DNA of 63,376 nt from Acidobacteriota bacterium (GTDB lineage: Bacteria > Acidobacteriota > Thermoanaerobaculia > UBA5066), in assembly GCA_039934255.1 (NCBI GenBank), contig JBDTML010000163.1, positions 1 to 63,376 on the forward strand. The letters are read 5' to 3'. Made by a program: the position numbers and the translations under genes. Under the pieces are notes generated by a model. That model was not told where the DNA came from and did no database searches. It worked only from the letters and a program-made list of their open reading frames with translations. Below are positions 5,726 through 27,993 of this stretch, piece after piece; position 1 is the stretch's first letter, and each line of letters starts with the position of its first letter.

Positions 5726-6229
5726 TTACCGCTGCGAGCCCGCGGGGTACTGGAGGAACTGGCCGTCGACGAAGACGATGTCCTCGTTGAAGTCCGTGGT
5801 CTCTCCGCCGGCTTTCGAGGTGGAGATTCCGTCTTTGCCGTAAGACACCATGCCGTAGTTCTGGTTGTTGGCGTCGACGGAGTACGTGAAGTACGACTGC
5901 CAACCGTCCACGATGGGCAGGAGGCGGATGTAAGTCGGCGCGACCTGCTTGTTGAAGCCGGATCCTGCCGCGCCAAATGTCGTGCTGCCGAGGGTCAGGG
6001 TCGAGGGGAGCACGATTCCAGCCGCCGCCGGATAGTGGTTGAAGTCCACGGCGTACGCCTCGGCGGCCGTGCCCGCGGAGCGAACGTCGGCCATCGTCCT
6101 CTTCTGCTTGGCGCGCTGAATGGCGTTGAGCAGGTTGGGGATGGCGATCGCGACGATGATGCCGATGATCGCGACGACGATCAGAAGCTCGATCAACGTA
6201 AAGCCCTTGTTGTTGTTCCTCTTCTTCAT
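5726..6229 (-). CDS. Type IV pilin / GspG-like pseudopilin with a prepilin N-terminal cleavage-methylation motif
   Basis: The N-terminus is MKKRNNNKG/FTLIELLIVVAIIGIIVAIAIPNLLNAIQRAKQKRTMADVRS.., with the class III signal peptide motif G-FTLIEL. An AGGAGG Shine-Dalgarno sits 8 nt upstream of the ATG. Confidence 0.92.
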   Translation of the reverse strand: MKKRNNNKGFTLIELLIVVAIIGIIVAIAIPNLLNAIQRAKQKRTMADVRSAGTAAEAYAVDFNHYPAAAGIVLPSTLTLGSTTFGAAGSGFNKQVAPTYIRLLPIVDGWQSYFTYSVDANNQNYGMVSYGKDGISTSKAGGETTDFNEDIVFVDGQFLQYPAGSQR

Positions 6230-6259
6230 GAGATGAACCTCCTAATCCCTGATCTGCTT

Positions 6260-6275
6260 TCAAGACCCGTGCCGT
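6260..6275 (-). promoter_or_regulatory. Possible sigma54 (-24/-12) type promoter for pilin gene 1
   Basis: The minus strand reads cGGCACGGGTCTTGAAAGC. GG and TTG are spaced as in TGGCACG-N4-TTGC, but the -12 dinucleotide is GA rather than GC. It lies about 30-45 nt upstream of the ATG. Confidence 0.35.
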
Positions 6276-6402
6276 GGGCTTCCGACGCTGAATCAGGCTC
6301 GTTCGGGCAAAAATTAGGCCGCGAGCACGGCGCCGTTACGAATTTTTGTCGGGGGTAGCGGGGACCGCCGGACACCGTTTGTCGGTGCCACACCGGCCGC
6401 GA

Positions 6403-6888
6403 TCAATGCTGCGCGCCGTCCGGAAACTGAACGAACGTCCCGTCCACGAGGATGATGTCGGCGTTGAAATTCGTGGTCGCGCCGCCCAGGGGACTCGCCT
6501 CCGGGGCGCCGTCCGCTCCCGCCGAGCGAAGGGCGAAATCGCCCCTCGACGAGCTCCCCCCATAGAGGAAAAAAGAGTTCCACCCGTCCACGAGCGGCAC
6601 CATCCGGATGTAGGTCGGGCCCAGAGTGCCGGAAATGACACCGACCGTGCTGGTGGGCAGCGAAAGCCCCGAGGGCAGGGAGATCGCCGCCGCCGCCGGA
6701 TAGAAGTTATGGTCCGTGGCGTAGGCGTCGAGGGCGGTCGCAATCGTCTTCATGTCGCCCATCGAACGCTTCTGCTTCGCGCGCTGGATCGCATTGATCA
6801 TGTTCACGATCGCGATCGCGGCGATGAGGCCGATGATCGTCACGACGATCAGAAGCTCGATGAGCGTGAATCCCCGGCGTCTCGGCAT
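6403..6888 (-). CDS. Type IV pilin / GspG-like pseudopilin, tandem paralogue
   Basis: The N-terminus is MPRRRG/FTLIELLIVVTIIGLIAAIAIVNMINAIQRAKQKRSMGDMKT.., and the fold-level pattern matches pilin 1 (..YA.D.N.YPAAA..). I prefer the ATG at 6888 over the tracked start at 6924. The leader is then a normal length, and the 6924 codon falls inside the putative promoter. Confidence 0.88.
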   Translation of the reverse strand: MPRRRGFTLIELLIVVTIIGLIAAIAIVNMINAIQRAKQKRSMGDMKTIATALDAYATDHNFYPAAAAISLPSGLSLPTSTVGVISGTLGPTYIRMVPLVDGWNSFFLYGGSSSRGDFALRSAGADGAPEASPLGGATTNFNADIILVDGTFVQFPDGAQH

Positions 6889-6920
6889 GCTCCCTCGTAA
6901 CCCGAATCCCCCCGTGCTAC

Positions 6921-6936
6921 TCAAGAAACGTGCCTC
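6921..6936 (-). promoter_or_regulatory. Possible sigma54 (-24/-12) type promoter for pilin gene 2
   Basis: The minus strand reads aGGCACGTTTCTTGAGTAG. This is the same GGCACG-N4-TTGA architecture seen upstream of pilin 1. Confidence 0.35.
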
Positions 6937-20040: not shown

Positions 20041-20751
20041 ATGAAGCTCGAGGGCCGGGTCGTTCTCATCACGGGCGCCGGGCGCGGGATCGGCCGCGCG
20101 CTGGCGCACGCCTTCGCGGCGGCGGGGGCGAAGGTGGCTCTTCTCGGAAAGACGAAGAAGAACCTGCTCGAGGTCCAGAAGGAGCTGAAGGACTCCGGCG
20201 CCGCGACCGTCGTCCTCGCGGCGGACGTCTCGGACGAGGGGGCGGTCTCGCGCGCCGTCGCCGCCGCCGAGCAGCAGCTCGGGCCGGTGGACGTCCTCGT
20301 GAACAACGCGGGCGTCTTCGCGCTGGCGCCCATCGAGAAGATGGACACGGTGGCCTTCGACCGCATGCTCGCCATCAACCTCCGCGGTCCCTTCCTGATG
20401 TCCCGCGCCGTGCTGCCGGGTATGAAATCCCGCAAGCGCGGGCACATCGTGAACATCTCGTCGACGGCGGGCCGACGGGGGTTCGCGGGAGGCGGCGCGT
20501 ACTGCGCGTCGAAATTCGGGCTCGCGGGCCTCACCGAGGCGATGCGTTACGAAGCCCGCGCCTCGAACGTGCGCGTGACGTGCGTCTTCCCGTCCACGGT
20601 GAACACCGACCTCGTCAAAAAGGCAGGAATGGACTTCGTGCCCGAACGCGCGATCCAGCCGGAGGACGTCGCGAACGCGATCGTGTCGCTCGTGGCGATG
20701 GACGACCGCGCGATGACGACGGCCCTCGAGATCTGGCAGACGAACCCGTGA
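20041..20751 (+). CDS. SDR family oxidoreductase
   Basis: The sequence reads MKLEGRVVLITGAGRGIGRALA (TGxxxGxG), NNAG, and SSTAG..YCASK (catalytic YxxxK). GGAGG lies 6 nt upstream of the ATG at 20041. Confidence 0.9.
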   Translation: MKLEGRVVLITGAGRGIGRALAHAFAAAGAKVALLGKTKKNLLEVQKELKDSGAATVVLAADVSDEGAVSRAVAAAEQQLGPVDVLVNNAGVFALAPIEKMDTVAFDRMLAINLRGPFLMSRAVLPGMKSRKRGHIVNISSTAGRRGFAGGGAYCASKFGLAGLTEAMRYEARASNVRVTCVFPSTVNTDLVKKAGMDFVPERAIQPEDVANAIVSLVAMDDRAMTTALEIWQTNP

Positions 20752-21521
20752 CGTCGAAACATGGAGTCCCCAAGCCCCACACGCCCGCGGCGCCCCCCCA
20801 CGCGAAGGGCACCTCCCGGCCCCTCCCCCGCCATCACCACGTGGAGGCCCACTTCTCGGGCTCGGAGACCGTGCGCGACGTCGTGCTCGGGATGTCCGAC
20901 GGCCTCACGGTCCCGTTCGCCCTCGCGGCCGGACTTTCCGGCGCGGTCGCGAGCTCGCGGGTCATCCTCGTGGCGGGCGTCGCCGAGCTGGCCGCGGGCG
21001 CGATCGCCATGGGCCTCGGCGGTTATCTGGCCGCGAAGAGCGAGGCCGACACGTGGCATAGCGAGCTGAAGCGCGAGTACGAGGAGGTGAAGGACGTTCC
21101 CGCGGAAGAGCAGGAAGAGGTCCGCAAGGTCTTCCGCGGCTGGGGCCTCGTGGGCGAAACGCTCGAGGCGGCCACGCACGCCGTTTGCTCGGATCACGAT
21201 CGCTGGGTGGACTTCATGATGCGCGAGGAGCTCAACCTCTCGGAGCCCGACCCGAAGCGGGCCCGCGTCTCGGCGCTCACGATCGGCGGCTCGTACGTGG
21301 CGGGCGGGGCGATTCCGCTGTCCCCCTATCTCCTCGGGGTCCCCGTGACCACGGCGCTCGCCACGTCGGTCGTCGTCACCCTTCTCGCGCTGGCCGTGTT
21401 CGGGGCGTTCAAGGGCAAGCTCACGGGCCGCCCGATCCTCAGCGAGGCGCTGCGCACCGTCTTCGTCGGGGCGCTCGCATCCGGAGCGGCGTATACGTTG
21501 GCCCGACTGATTTCCGGTTGA
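20748..21521 (+). CDS. VIT1/CCC1 family iron/manganese transporter
   Basis: The sequence reads ..VRDVVLGMSDGLTVPFALAAGLSGA...AGAIAMGLGGYLAAKSE...five TM pattern.. The in-frame GTG at 20748 overlaps the SDR stop as GTGA. Confidence 0.82.
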   Translation: MTSKHGVPKPHTPAAPPHAKGTSRPLPRHHHVEAHFSGSETVRDVVLGMSDGLTVPFALAAGLSGAVASSRVILVAGVAELAAGAIAMGLGGYLAAKSEADTWHSELKREYEEVKDVPAEEQEEVRKVFRGWGLVGETLEAATHAVCSDHDRWVDFMMREELNLSEPDPKRARVSALTIGGSYVAGGAIPLSPYLLGVPVTTALATSVVVTLLALAVFGAFKGKLTGRPILSEALRTVFVGALASGAAYTLARLISG

Positions 21522-24366: not shown

Positions 24367-24395
24367 GGGCCGCGCTCGCGCGGCCCTTTTCTTTC
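24367..24395 (+). terminator. Intrinsic terminator after korB
   Basis: GGGCCGCG-CTCG-CGCGGCCC (8-bp stem, 4-nt loop) is followed by TTTTCTTTC. Confidence 0.8.
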
Positions 24396-24399
24396 GCCC

Positions 24400-25983
24400 T
24401 CAGCGCCCCCGCATCTCGTAGACGAAGCCCATGCCGGGCGTCTTCTTCTCCTCGAGCGTGGCGCGGTAGGCGCGGGCGGCGTCCACGTCCGGGAATTCGC
24501 CCACGACGACGCGATACCAGACGCCCTTGTCCCCGAGATCGACCTCGACGGCGCGCGCGGGCGACCCGAGCGCCGCGCCGAGCTTCGCGGCTTCCTTCGC
24601 CGCGCTCGCGCGGTCCTTCGTCGAGGAGAAGTGGATGACGTAAACGGCGGGCTTCCCGGTCCAGTCGGGCGTCACAAGAAGCGCGGCCTTGCCCCTCGGC
24701 AGCGCGGGCGCGGGTTTCGCAGCAGGGGCCGAGGGCTTCGCGGCCGCCGCCGGAGCGGCTGTCGGCGCCACGGCGGGCACGGAAACGGCGACGGGAGCGG
24801 CTGGCAATTCATCAGGCTTCTTGCGCACGAGCGGCGCGACCGGTTTCACGATCTCGTTCCTGAAAACGTATTCGCGCACGGCCCACGCGAGCCCCGCCCC
24901 GACCGCGAGAACGAGCGCGACGGCCACGATCCAGCCCCGCCGACCGGAACGTGGCGGTGCCGGCGGACGAGAATCAGGCGACTTGAAGTGGAATTCCTCC
25001 ATCGCCGGCTGTGTGTTGTCCTCCAGCAGGTCGTCGCTGATCGGGGGCACCTCGGACATGGACATGGCCCTGGCCGGCGGCTCGAGCGGCACGTAAGGCT
25101 CATCCGCCTCCCGGATCGCGGGCATGGCTGGGATCGACGGCGCGGTCGGCGCCCTGAGGAAGCGTTCGAACCCCGCCGCAGAACGGGCCGCCGGGAGCGG
25201 CTCGACGGGCAGCGACGGGGGCTCCGGCCCCCTGGGATGCTCGAGCGGAATCGACGGGGCGGCTACGACGGCCGGCCTCGACAGGGGTCTGGGCTTCGCC
25301 GGAGCCTCCGTGGGCAGCTCGCCGAAGAGATCGCCCATGGCAGAAGGCTGCAGCTCGCGCGGCGGCAGAGGCTCGCGCGGCGGCAGAGGCTCGCGCGGCG
25401 GCGACGGCTCGGTCTCCGCGGGCGCGGCCGCTTCGGGAGCGAACGTGATGGGCTCCGGTGCCGGCCTGGAGTCGCGCACAGGCTCGCTGGGCGCGGAGAT
25501 CCCGACCGGACCTCGCGACCTGTGCGGGATCGGCAGGATCGCCGACCGAAACGGCGCGTCCTCGGCCTGAATCGGCAGATCCTTCTCCCAGTTCAGATCC
25601 GAACGCGACGCCAGATCCTGGAAGGGATCGTCGGCCTGCACAGGCTTCGCCGGCGGCGGCGACGCCGGCGGCTCGCGCGCGGGCGCCGGCCGGGCGGGAA
25701 AAACGGGCATGGGCGGAGACGCAGGCTCCGCAACGGGCATTACCGACCCGTCCCGCTCGAGCTGGAGGCGCGCCCGCCTCACGAGGACGTCCAGCGGCGC
25801 GGCTTCGAATCCCTGCTTCACCTTCGCCAGCTCCTCGGCAACCACGCTGCGCGCCGCCTTGAACAGCACCGCCGGATCCGCCGAAACGGTCTTGGCGAGA
25901 TCGCGCACGACGTCCGTCACGGCCGGCAGCATCCTCTTCCGGGGCTCCGAATCTCGCGGGAATCCGGTGTCGAGCGGGCTCAT
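24400..25983 (-). CDS. Bitopic protein: long Pro-rich cytoplasmic region, one TM, periplasmic SPOR (septal peptidoglycan-binding) domain
   Basis: The ATG at 25983 overlaps the MamK-like stop as ATGA. The TM is GWIVAVALVLAVGAGLAWAV at about aa 365-385. The C-terminal SPOR-like fold reads AVYVIHFSSTKDRASAAKEAAKLGA...GVWYRVVVGEFPDVDAARAYRATLE. The portion of the tracked ORF upstream of 25983 overlaps the actin gene. Confidence 0.8.
   Translation of the reverse strand: MSPLDTGFPRDSEPRKRMLPAVTDVVRDLAKTVSADPAVLFKAARSVVAEELAKVKQGFEAAPLDVLVRRARLQLERDGSVMPVAEPASPPMPVFPARPAPAREPPASPPPAKPVQADDPFQDLASRSDLNWEKDLPIQAEDAPFRSAILPIPHRSRGPVGISAPSEPVRDSRPAPEPITFAPEAAAPAETEPSPPREPLPPREPLPPRELQPSAMGDLFGELPTEAPAKPRPLSRPAVVAAPSIPLEHPRGPEPPSLPVEPLPAARSAAGFERFLRAPTAPSIPAMPAIREADEPYVPLEPPARAMSMSEVPPISDDLLEDNTQPAMEEFHFKSPDSRPPAPPRSGRRGWIVAVALVLAVGAGLAWAVREYVFRNEIVKPVAPLVRKKPDELPAAPVAVSVPAVAPTAAPAAAAKPSAPAAKPAPALPRGKAALLVTPDWTGKPAVYVIHFSSTKDRASAAKEAAKLGAALGSPARAVEVDLGDKGVWYRVVVGEFPDVDAARAYRATLEEKKTPGMGFVYEMRGR
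25354..25407. repeat. Tandem 18-nt repeat (about 3 copies) encoding PPREPL repeats in the SPOR protein
   Basis: The plus strand reads ctcgcgcggcggcagagg twice, followed by a degenerate third copy ctcgcgcggcggcgacgg. The translated minus strand reads PPREPLPPREPLPPRE. Confidence 0.8.
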
Positions 25984-26999
25984 GCCGAGAGCGGCTCCCA
26001 GTCTCCTTCGGGCGCGTCGAGTGCGATGGCGAGGCCGCCATTCGAGCCCGCGAAAACCGGATCGTCCACGGCGCGCACGCGGCCGCCGCCGATCTCGGCG
26101 AGCGCCTTCTCGAGCGCCGCCTGGAGACCGGGCAGCTGCGAGCCGCCGCCCGCGAGAACGATGTTGCGCTGCACCTTTTCCTGGTATTCCGGCTCGACCT
26201 TCGAGAGGAGGTCGAGCATCGTCTCGGTGATGGGCCCGACGATGCTTTCGCAGGCCTTCTTCATCTCGGCCGTGATGTCGACGTCGGCCGGCTTCCCCTT
26301 CACGGGGAACCGCACGACGACCGGACCCGGCGGGCTCCCGACGAAGCTGTGCTTCTCTTTCCATTCGCGCACCATGTGAATCGAGAAACGGCCGTCCGGG
26401 TTCTTCGCCTTCACGAGCGTCATGAGCTGCTCGTCGATGGAGTCGCCCGCGTGTGTCAGCGTGCGCTGATCGTCTTCGGTCGGGTAGCGGCCGTTCATGA
26501 CACAGAAATCCGTCGTTCCCGCGCCGATGTCGATGACCATCGTGTGGAGCAGCGCGTCCATCCCGTACGCCACGGCGAACGGCTCGGACACGATGAGGAG
26601 GGCGTCCGCGACCCCCTTAACCGCCGTGCGCAGGTGCTGGCGGGAGACGCGCAGGGCCTCGGCGGGCACGCCGACGACGGCCTGTATCGACTGGCCCTCC
26701 TTTCGGCCGGCCAGACCGATGAGGTGCTTGAGGAGCTCGTGCACGGCCTCCTCGTCCTTCGTGGAACCCTGCTTGATGAGACCGCGCTCCAGAGGGCGAT
26801 GCAGGTCGAGCATGGGCCGGTTCTCGAGCGCCTCGGCGCCGAAGAGAATCGGCTTCTTCACGACCTTGCGGGCCACCATGTCCAGGGGCCAGCCCACGTA
26901 GCTCTCCACGACGTGGTGCGCGCCGTTCGAGGCCGTAATGGCGCTCCGCGACGTGCCGAGGTCGATCCCGACGTGGAGAACGTCCTTCTTCCCGCTCAT
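25980..26999 (-). CDS. Actin-like ATPase of the MreB/MamK superfamily, closest by motif pattern to MamK
   Basis: Motifs present: GIDLGTSRSAI (phosphate 1), VVGVPAEA, VSEPFAVAYG, VIDIGAGTTDFCV (phosphate 2), WKEKHSFVG, FPVKGKPADVDITAEMKKACE, EYQEKVQRNIVLAGGGSQLPGL (adenosine). These blocks parallel MamK as I recall it (IVDIGAGTTDICA, VKEQFSFVG, FRAAGKPVRADVTE, PEYQATVLQNIVFAGGGSRIRGL). The start at ATG 26999 (MSGKKDVLHVGIDLG) is preferred. Confidence 0.85.
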   Translation of the reverse strand: MSGKKDVLHVGIDLGTSRSAITASNGAHHVVESYVGWPLDMVARKVVKKPILFGAEALENRPMLDLHRPLERGLIKQGSTKDEEAVHELLKHLIGLAGRKEGQSIQAVVGVPAEALRVSRQHLRTAVKGVADALLIVSEPFAVAYGMDALLHTMVIDIGAGTTDFCVMNGRYPTEDDQRTLTHAGDSIDEQLMTLVKAKNPDGRFSIHMVREWKEKHSFVGSPPGPVVVRFPVKGKPADVDITAEMKKACESIVGPITETMLDLLSKVEPEYQEKVQRNIVLAGGGSQLPGLQAALEKALAEIGGGRVRAVDDPVFAGSNGGLAIALDAPEGDWEPLSA

Positions 27000-27000
27000 G

Positions 27001-27993
27001 TCAACTCCGTCTGGAGGGCGGATGGTTCCGCGCCTCCGCATACGCGAGGATTCCGTTCGAAAGGGCCTGTGCGATCTGCTGACGATAACCGGGATCCCTG
27101 AGATGCCGCGCCTCTTCGTCGTTCGAGACGGTCGCGACCTCCGCGAGGATGCCCGGCATCTCCGTGGCGATGAGGACGACGAACGGCGCGCTCCTCACGC
27201 CGCGATCCTGGAGCCGGGGAACGACGGGCCGGAGCGAGGTCACGAGGCCGCCCTGCACGGACTCGGCGAACTTCCGGGACTCGCCCTGGCGGGAGTCCGC
27301 GAGGACCCCTTCGAGAAGGCGCCGGAAGTCGGCCATCGTGTACCCCGAGGAGCGGTTCTCGTCCCCGGCCAGCTGCTGGACGTGCGGGTCGGTCGTGGTC
27401 CCGAGAAAGTACGTCTCGACGCCGCGCTTGTCCTTCACCGAGGGAAGAGAGTTCACGTGAATCGAGACGAAAAGATCGGACTTCCTCGCGTTCGCGAAGA
27501 CCACGCGGTCCTTCAGGGACAGGGTCGAGTCCGCCTCGCGTGTGAGGGACACGGTGATCTTCTGGGCGACGAGCAGGTCGCGAAGGCGGCGCGCCACGTC
27601 GAGCGTCACGTCCTTTTCCGCGATACCGGAAGCCGTCGCGCCCGGGTCCGTCCCGCCGTGCCCCGGGTCGATGACGACGGAGCGCACCTCGAGCCGGAAG
27701 AGCGAAGGCTCGAGGCCGTTCGGCGCGTTGACGACCGTCGCGGGCACGGCGGGCACCGCGGGCGGCGCCGAAACGACGAGGAAGTCCGTTCGCTCGCCCT
27801 TCCCCGTCGTCAGCGCGTTGATCGAGAGGAACAGCGCGAGCGGGACGACTACGAACACGGACGCGCGGAAGAGGCGCCGACGCACGCGGTCCGCGCGTCT
27901 GAGCCCGCGGGGCAGACGGCCCTCGATGACGTCCACGTTCTCGCGGATCGCGTCCTTGAGGATTGATTGCCGGAGTCGCTTCACGTCGGCCAT
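27001..27993 (-). CDS. N-acetylmuramoyl-L-alanine amidase (Amidase_3, AmiA/B/C type) with an N-terminal TM anchor
   Basis: The sequence reads VVIDPGHGGTDPGA...EKDVTLDVARRL...SLKDRVVFANARKSDLFVSIHVNS...GVETYF...VLIATEMPGILAEV. Confidence 0.9.
   Translation of the reverse strand: MADVKRLRQSILKDAIRENVDVIEGRLPRGLRRADRVRRRLFRASVFVVVPLALFLSINALTTGKGERTDFLVVSAPPAVPAVPATVVNAPNGLEPSLFRLEVRSVVIDPGHGGTDPGATASGIAEKDVTLDVARRLRDLLVAQKITVSLTREADSTLSLKDRVVFANARKSDLFVSIHVNSLPSVKDKRGVETYFLGTTTDPHVQQLAGDENRSSGYTMADFRRLLEGVLADSRQGESRKFAESVQGGLVTSLRPVVPRLQDRGVRSAPFVVLIATEMPGILAEVATVSNDEEARHLRDPGYRQQIAQALSNGILAYAEARNHPPSRRS

Follow-up and report, generated by a model that had tools for sequence, protein, structure and literature searches.

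What process is served by an actin-like protein of the MamK family whose gene sits between those of a cell-wall amidase and a SPOR-domain protein? The question is raised by a stretch of 63,376 nucleotides (nt) from an Acidobacteriota bacterium (contig JBDTML010000163.1, 69% G+C), the whole of which is called the window below. Three genes of this window follow one another head to tail on the minus strand, in the order amidase, actin, SPOR protein. Bacterial actins guide wall synthesis (MreB), division (FtsA), DNA (ParM) and magnetosomes (MamK). The three genes are listed here with the main evidence for each assignment and with product lengths in amino acids (aa).

27001..27993, minus strand: AmiA/B/C-type N-acetylmuramoyl-L-alanine amidase, predicted to be bitopic, 330 aa (Pfam Amidase_3, 6e-50)
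25980..26999, minus strand: MamK-family actin-like ATPase, 339 aa, member of the amidase-linked subclade (NCBIfam MamK, 376 bits)
24400..25983, minus strand: SPOR-domain protein, probably bitopic, 527 aa, lineage-specific third gene (Pfam SPOR; ATGA overlap)

The module consists of known families in a new, widely conserved arrangement. The pairing of amidase and actin, together with a conserved cytoplasmic tail on the amidase, points to a mechanism, not described so far, by which an internal filament could direct wall trimming. Our preferred reading, which we hold to be probable, is that this tail lets the filament position or cluster an autoinhibited periplasmic amidase, and that SPOR proteins read the amidase product. 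In full-text literature searches, no publication was found that connects a MamK-family actin with an amidase or with SPOR, in line with the sequence-only reading of this stretch, which knew of no characterised module of this sort.

Conservation of the amidase-actin pair

The three open reading frames (ORFs) lie where the sequence-only reading had placed them on the minus strand, with the 1-nt gap between amidase and actin and the ATGA overlap between actin and SPOR protein that it described. The amidase/actin junction reads ...AGT TGA, C, ATG AGC, the actin ATG is preceded at 6 nt by GGAG, and the ATGA contains both the actin stop and the SPOR-protein start. The tight coupling of the genes, also claimed in that reading, is borne out by these junctions and by the spacing across homologous loci. 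Two clades of actins were separated by a distance tree, each with 100% bootstrap: clade A, which holds the window actin and its genome-collection relatives, and clade B, the group around protein P0124. The gap or overlap between amidase and actin mostly falls between -8 and +8 nt in clade A and between -32 and -17 nt in clade B, and a Shine-Dalgarno-like site stands before the actin start in 140 of 149 loci.

Homologous loci were taken from two sources. The genome collection provided 80 loci, with actins 65-99% identical to that of the window, and a metagenome scan seeded with P0124 provided 80 further loci at 50-56% identity. The pairing was counted only where 200 nt or more of sequence is available upstream of the actin. 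The gene that immediately precedes the actin codes for an amidase in 79/79 genome loci and in 73/74 metagenome loci (152/153 in total), and the actin identity across the paired loci ranges over 50-99%. When the synteny of the triad in relatives, which had been proposed as a check, was examined, it held for amidase and actin. It did not hold for the third gene, as SPOR follows in 51/71 genome loci and in 7 metagenome loci. The conserved unit is the amidase-actin pair, not the triad.

The hosts of the paired loci span five phyla (Acidobacteriota, Methylomirabilota/Rokubacteria, Binatia, Nitrospirota and Thermodesulfobacteriota). Those named in the genome collection are Thermoanaerobaculia, Holophagales, Rokubacteria/Methylomirabilota, Binatia and one 'Deltaproteobacteria' metagenome-assembled genome (MAG). 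Further named hosts are Nitrospira sp., Desulfobulbus sp., Desulfobacterales and Thermodesulfobacteriota bacterium B35, the last being a named, non-MAG strain that carries the pair. In the Nitrospira-type locus the two genes of the pair stand by themselves, flanked by unrelated genes on the opposite strand. Clustering of the ORFs of the 80 metagenome loci gave nothing, beyond the pair, that is common to more than 16 loci. No amidase was found near the MamK-family actins of Gemmatimonadota, Verrucomicrobiota and one unassigned lineage, the three that were sampled outside the known magnetotactic bacteria. In the unassigned lineage the actin has bactofilin and ParAB genes as neighbours.

A protein of about 1250 aa recurs near the pair in 16 clade-B metagenome loci, in mixed orientation (e.g. 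L095, 5169-8945). As a guess from its sequence, it may be a membrane sensor protein.

Family of the actin

Against the NCBIfam MamK model (NF040964) the actin scores 376 bits (E 1.5e-112), which is marginally under the cut-off of 400 and far above any other model. The BeeR model gives 220 bits (cut-off 530), and the two MreB models give 58 bits (TIGR00904, cut-off 366) and 73 bits (NF010539, cut-off 293). Against PDB, the scores are 257 bits for MamK (5LJW/5JYG), 158 for BeeR (8R2N) and about 49 for MreB. The actin aligns with 5LJW end to end (residues 5-337) without large indels, and the equivalents of MamK E143 and D161 are kept in this alignment (SEPF, IDIGAGTTD). In the alignment of homologues, G11, D13, G15, D157, G159 and G284 are universally conserved. 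At the level of sequence family, the actin belongs to MamK and not to MreB. The sequence-only reading had come to the same assignment from five peptide blocks, all of which were found in the translation. The profile models, the PDB match and the tree agree with it, and the comparison with MreB by models and phylogeny that it proposed placed the actin in a MamK-family clade (100% bootstrap) and not in MreB.

Public annotations give the name 'rod shape-determining protein MreB' to this family and 'MamK family actin-like protein' to clade B; product P0001 there is the same 339-aa actin. The clade-B relative P0124, for which NCBI has the latter name, scores 425 bits on the NCBIfam MamK model. That the protein is an ordinary MreB rod-shape protein is highly improbable, even with these source names and a weak Pfam MreB_Mbl match (79 bits) in its favour, since this is refuted at the sequence-family level by the MamK versus MreB scores and by the MamK-family clade. 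Moreover, no mreC or mreD follows the actin, its flanks being the amidase and the SPOR protein.

The family is small. When 1.8 billion cluster representatives were scanned exhaustively and without a profile, only 191 of them matched at E <= 1e-30. In the distance tree, the alphaproteobacterial MamK (77%) and the BeeR-like proteins (98%) fall apart from clades A and B. Seven clade-specific substitutions were found in the actin (Y34, G78, V86, V109, L134, F165 and F205), scattered and mostly of the buried type. As they form no clear patch, a clade-specific surface patch was set aside as evidence.

A phage or mobile origin of the actin was also considered and rejected, on a single distant match among 2.9 million viral contigs. 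This sole match in the viral collection is a MamK-family actin of 36% identity, and the contig that encodes it is large (114 kb) and putatively viral (L169, IMGVR_UViG_3300022539_000610).

MamK relatives outside magnetotactic bacteria have been described before, and the window actin resembles them in this respect. BeeR of Verrucomicrobiota has a disordered N-terminal extension and forms a three-stranded tube (PMC11929497), and the gene of Bbp ('big bacteria protein') is clustered with two others, one for a hypothetical protein and one for a Kelch-domain protein (PMC10580974). Both occur mostly in non-magnetotactic bacteria (PMC11929497; PMC10580974), and mamK-like genes have been reported in Beggiatoaceae and Thiomargarita. 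An amidase is not mentioned in the main texts on BeeR (PMC11929497), on Bbp (PMC10580974) or on the mamK-like genes of Beggiatoaceae and Thiomargarita.

Since MamK is the closest characterised relative, sharing the sequence family, the end-to-end alignment and the E143/D161 equivalents, we asked whether the protein could be a true magnetosome MamK of an unrecognised magnetotactic bacterium. A VIT1/CCC1-type iron transporter gene four genes from the actin (window 20580-21521, plus strand) would fit such a role. It is also seen in a close relative with the same gene order (L170, 16225-16998; its actin P0017 is 94% identical), which was used for neighbour annotation, and it is absent from the other annotated loci. 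Its proximity is taken as a coincidence without magnetosome link, as it is seen only in the window and this relative. No magnetosome gene families were found among the Pfam-annotated neighbours in L170, L164-166 and L103, these neighbours being metabolic and transport genes. In the 80 metagenome loci no other conserved neighbour was seen either, so that the statement of the sequence-only reading that nothing else here is magnetosome-related still holds. The window actin lies outside any mam cluster, in a clade separate from the alphaproteobacterial MamK, and is paired with an amidase instead of MamJ, MamY or other mam genes. The magnetosome explanation is therefore scarcely credible.

The amidase and its cytoplasmic tail

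Three parts of the amidase are distinguished.

27919..27981, minus strand: conserved cytoplasmic N-terminal tail helix, residues ~5-25, KRLRQSILKDAIRENVDVIEG, candidate actin-binding peptide (motif, conservation, predicted helix)
27808..27873, minus strand: Arg-rich stretch and single transmembrane (TM) anchor, residues ~41-62 (hydropathy peak 40-64; helix 33-62 in the AlphaFold2 (AF2) model)
27031..27684, minus strand: periplasmic catalytic domain with AmiA-like regulatory helix insertion at residues ~203-229 (alignment, AF2)

The Pfam Amidase_3 match (6e-50) covers residues 106-316. The catalytic domain can be aligned from end to end with E. coli AmiA (8C2O), Bartonella AmiB (3NE8) and AmiC (4BIN). 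The alignment includes the insertion of about 40 residues that holds the autoinhibitory helix of these enzymes, where 'DENRS' of the amidase is aligned to 'RENRA' of AmiA, 'SENKV' of AmiB and 'TQNAS' of AmiC. The Zn ligands and the catalytic Glu (H112, E126, H179 and E285) are invariant in 45 amidase homologues. For the AF2 model, AmiA 8C2O is the best fold match, with a TM-score of 0.81 over all 228 residues; 8C0J, 7TJ4 and 7RAG, structures from the partner-activated amidase systems compared below, are also among the fold matches. The helices of the regulatory region in the model (203-216 and 220-229) are predicted to be autoinhibitory by their likeness to AmiA/AmiB/AmiC. On the NCBIfam AmiA model the amidase scores 118 bits, with a cut-off of 400. 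Neither a signal peptide nor an AMIN domain was found by Pfam, AF2 or hydropathy, the TM anchor looks uncleaved, and no LytM activator gene of the EnvC/NlpD type was seen in the operon.

From the N-terminus, the AF2 model has a helix (2-23), the Arg-rich stretch, the TM helix and then a linker (61-98) with a predicted local distance difference test (pLDDT) value below 50. The amidase is thus predicted by the model to be bitopic with its N-terminus inside, that is, with a cytoplasmic tail, one TM helix and a periplasmic catalytic domain. The tail helix is amphipathic and follows a motif of about [RK]-[LIV]-K-x-x-[ILMV]-L-[RKQ]-x-[AV]-[VIY]-x-E-N-[LV], whose regular expression matches 124 of the 128 amidases that are not cut by a contig end. 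Among the 45 homologues, R17, E18 and G25 are at least 90% conserved, and N19 is as invariant as the Zn ligands. The motif is recognisable in both clades despite amidase domains that are only 33-44% identical.

The actin has, by its sequence, no amphipathic helix of its own at the N-terminus. It would therefore need a membrane adaptor, and the amidase tail would be the obvious candidate for the link between filament and membrane. As the SPOR protein is not universal, the amidase itself becomes the universal candidate for a link through the membrane.

All this may also be read without any physical coupling. Amidase and actin might be operon partners in one process (e.g. division), the tail serving self-association, membrane insertion or another cytoplasmic regulator while the filament does a separate job. 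Operon linkage alone is no proof of contact, the amphipathic tail could lie on the membrane, and an actin without an adjacent amidase does occur (L129, described below). On the other hand, the pairing is kept across the five phyla in otherwise unrelated contexts, with frames that usually overlap or abut. The invariant polar E-N in the tail is more in keeping with specific recognition than with lipid binding, and the tail is documented only for the actin-linked amidases that were examined. We therefore regard the absence of coupling as rather unlikely.

The SPOR protein as a lineage-specific addition

The domains of the third gene product are as follows.

25750..25932, minus strand: cytoplasmic N-terminal three-helix bundle, residues ~18-78 (conservation, AF2)
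24949..25731, minus strand: proline-rich, probably disordered cytoplasmic linker, residues ~85-345 (23% Pro; poorly conserved, variable in length)
24877..24936, minus strand: single TM helix, residues ~350-369 (hydropathy window maximum 348-371)
24445..24648, minus strand: periplasmic SPOR domain, residues 446-513 (Pfam PF05036; strongly conserved C-terminal block)

The sequence-only reading described about 360 aa of proline-rich, disordered cytoplasmic sequence followed by one TM helix and a SPOR domain. The TM helix, the SPOR domain (PF05036, 1.6e-08) and the proline richness (23% over residues 85-365) were found as described; residues 20-78 are not disordered and are modelled as a folded three-helix bundle. 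Its helices (22-32, 37-56 and 64-78) have pLDDT values of 90-95, and many of its positions are at least 90% conserved. A Pro/Ala linker joins the TM helix to the SPOR domain. Given the periplasmic role of SPOR, the protein is probably bitopic with its N-terminus inside. It has no match at E <0.01 in NCBIfam, which includes the FtsN and DamX families, and its 105 homologues all have a SPOR domain or are unnamed. For the N-terminal domain, neither a Pfam match (E up to 10) nor a significant PDB fold match by Foldseek was found. The fold match of top probability for this domain (LPAVTDVV...AEELAKVKQG...) is the N-terminal domain of SelA (3WCN), with a probability of 0.51 and E 1.1, which is not significant.

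The distribution of SPOR was surveyed by a jackhmmer SPOR scan of six-frame translations over 3 kb downstream of the actin. All of the 51 positive loci among the 71 genome loci with room belong to clade A and are of the Thermoanaerobaculia/Holophagales type. Within the 3 kb, SPOR is absent in 20 of the 71 clade-A loci, including those of Rokubacteria and Binatia. In the seven positive metagenome loci, which are of clade B and of Thermodesulfobacteriota type, the gene after the actin encodes a Response_reg domain, a TM helix and a SPOR domain. SPOR is a lineage-specific addition. It was acquired on at least two occasions, in one case with a three-helix bundle as its cytoplasmic domain and in the other with an unrelated one, a receiver.

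Two such recruitments with different cytoplasmic domains imply that SPOR is not the core adaptor. The sequence-only reading had proposed a filament connected across the membrane to sites of amidase action, with the SPOR protein as a RodZ/FtsN-like adaptor. The idea of a link through the membrane is retained here, and the SPOR adaptor is dropped as the common element. At the same time, two independent SPOR fusions placed right after the pair speak for an amidase that works in vivo and whose product is read. According to passages in PMC6895207 and 10.1101/2022.07.01.498525, SPOR domains bind glycan that amidases have denuded. We may reasonably infer that the product of this amidase recruits SPOR, the more so as the recruitment occurred twice independently.

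The logic might also run in the reverse direction. Amidase and SPOR protein would then be wall-attached anchors or nucleators for a filament that positions cytoplasmic cargo or marks a pole or septum in a MamK-like manner. Cargo positioning is the function of characterised MamK in published papers, SPOR and amidase domains both bind peptidoglycan, and the long Pro-rich cytoplasmic tether of the SPOR protein resembles a flexible anchor. When these points are set against the strict conservation of the catalytic residues and the regulatory helix, which indicates that enzyme activity matters, and against the lack of a conserved cargo gene near the pair in the metagenome clustering and in the Nitrospira-type locus, this reversal appears quite improbable.

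Proposed mechanism and comparison with known systems

We return to the preferred reading, that of a filament which positions the amidase. Its steps would be the following. A MamK-family filament, which the actin is predicted to form in the cytoplasm, would bind the cytoplasmic tail of the amidase. This binding would position or cluster the enzyme along the membrane, and the removal of stem peptides from peptidoglycan would thereby be restricted to sites set by the filament. In Thermoanaerobaculia and Holophagales, the bitopic SPOR protein would bind denuded glycan through its periplasmic SPOR domain, and its three-helix domain, on the long Pro-rich tether, would probably contact the same filament. 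Such a contact would stabilise the site by an FtsN-like feedback. The process served may be daughter-cell separation or local wall remodelling.

Several observations weigh against this proposal. The sole exception to the pairing (L129, 1-351) is a clade-B actin on a 1.7-kb contig, with about 330 nt of AT-rich non-coding sequence upstream and no adjacent amidase. No division or elongation genes are conserved near the pair in the neighbourhoods examined. Clades A and B are sisters in the full-data distance tree with a bootstrap of only 55%, and filament formation is attributed to this clade by inference. Furthermore, a disordered periplasmic linker of about 40 residues makes allosteric control across the membrane unlikely, so that only positioning or clustering is plausible. 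Finally, SPOR is absent next to most pairs, and the feedback loop would not be general unless SPOR is encoded elsewhere.

RodZ, a bitopic adaptor, binds MreB on the cytoplasmic side, and in Bacillus subtilis MreBH is reported to govern the localisation of the hydrolase LytE. In both cases actin homologues direct cell-wall enzymes through the membrane, as is proposed here. The present module differs in that the actin is of another family, no RodZ-like helix-turn-helix domain is present, and the hydrolase has a tail of its own and is encoded in the same operon.

When compared with the FtsA-FtsN-AmiA/B/C loop of E. coli, the module has the same kinds of components: a cytoplasmic actin-fold protein, a bitopic protein with a C-terminal SPOR domain, and an Amidase_3 enzyme with an autoinhibitory helix. 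In the septal loop of E. coli, SPOR is recruited by the denuded-glycan product of the autoinhibited amidases (passages in PMC6895207 and PMC7822825). The differences are that the actin here is MamK-type, that the long linker of the SPOR protein is cytoplasmic and not periplasmic, and that SPOR is optional. In addition, E. coli AmiA/B/C are soluble exported enzymes with or without AMIN, whereas the present amidase is predicted to be membrane-anchored with a cytoplasmic tail.

A third comparison is with Amidase_3 enzymes that show no activity by themselves and are switched on by partners. Passages in PMC9245657 and PMC8496864 describe FtsEX-EnvC with AmiA/AmiB, LytH-ActH and CwlD-GerS in this way. 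They further report that FtsEX ties a cytoplasmic ATPase to periplasmic amidase activity and that LytH and CwlD are membrane-anchored. In the module described here, the partner is an actin-like protein, predicted to form filaments, and not an ABC-type or LytM-type activator, and the enzyme is closest to AmiA, whose regulatory helix it shares.

If the positioning of the amidase by the filament is true, it would represent a new principle, namely direct cytoskeletal control of peptidoglycan hydrolysis by means of a hydrolase with its own cytoplasmic handle. It would also give the first functional lead for many MamK-family proteins outside magnetotactic bacteria, which are now mislabelled as MreB or left without function.

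A wider picture can be put forward only tentatively. The amidase-linked actins may be an envelope branch of the MamK family for self-organising wall remodelling, in which ATP-driven filaments gather the tailed amidases, denuded glycan captures SPOR proteins, and the cytoplasmic domains of the latter feed back on the filament, gated in some lineages by receiver phosphorylation. The outcome would be a stable and spatially defined patch or track of wall cleavage that is independent of FtsA/FtsN and MreB/RodZ. Were such an envelope branch ancestral, MamK would have taken on its magnetosome role later, by re-use of a cytoskeleton associated with the envelope.

Neighbouring genes and other MamK-family actins

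The amidase starts 2 nt after the stop of its upstream neighbour, the gene of an amino-acid ABC-transporter ATPase. The ABC transporter was rejected as a part of the module, since this neighbour is kept only in the closest genome-collection relatives. At the other end of the operon lies one further feature.

24367..24386, unstranded: GC-rich hairpin in the gap that separates the SPOR gene from the convergent gene for 2-oxoacid:ferredoxin oxidoreductase beta (terminator-like, 8 GC pairs; consensus match only)

Judging from its sequence, this hairpin is likely to be the 3' end of the operon. Elsewhere in the window, two adjoining genes (5726-6924, minus strand) encode products whose N-termini are typical of type IV pilins or pseudopilins (GFTLIELLIVV...).

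Some other MamK-family actins were met in different surroundings. In three loci (L161-L163, 5001-8841) the same two unannotated genes, of 178 aa and 301 aa, come after the Gemmatimonadota actin P0289, which was seen on at least 24 contigs; there is no amidase, and this locus may be a different actin module. In another locus (L168, 4001-8606) about 1.4 kb separates the MamK-family actin P0131 from a bactofilin gene, after which parB and parA come on the opposite strand.

Fusions to the actin domain were seen as well. A well-populated clade of proteins of 500-1232 aa (P0130, P0135, P0138, P0141-P0147, P0149, P0151 and P0163) has a C-terminal MamK-family actin domain, which is preceded by a conserved segment of coiled-coil-like character at the N-terminus and by acidic or low-complexity regions of great length. 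P0201, a protein of 768 aa which groups with the alphaproteobacterial-type MamK, has the look of a fusion between an FtsZ-type GTPase domain and a MamK-family actin.

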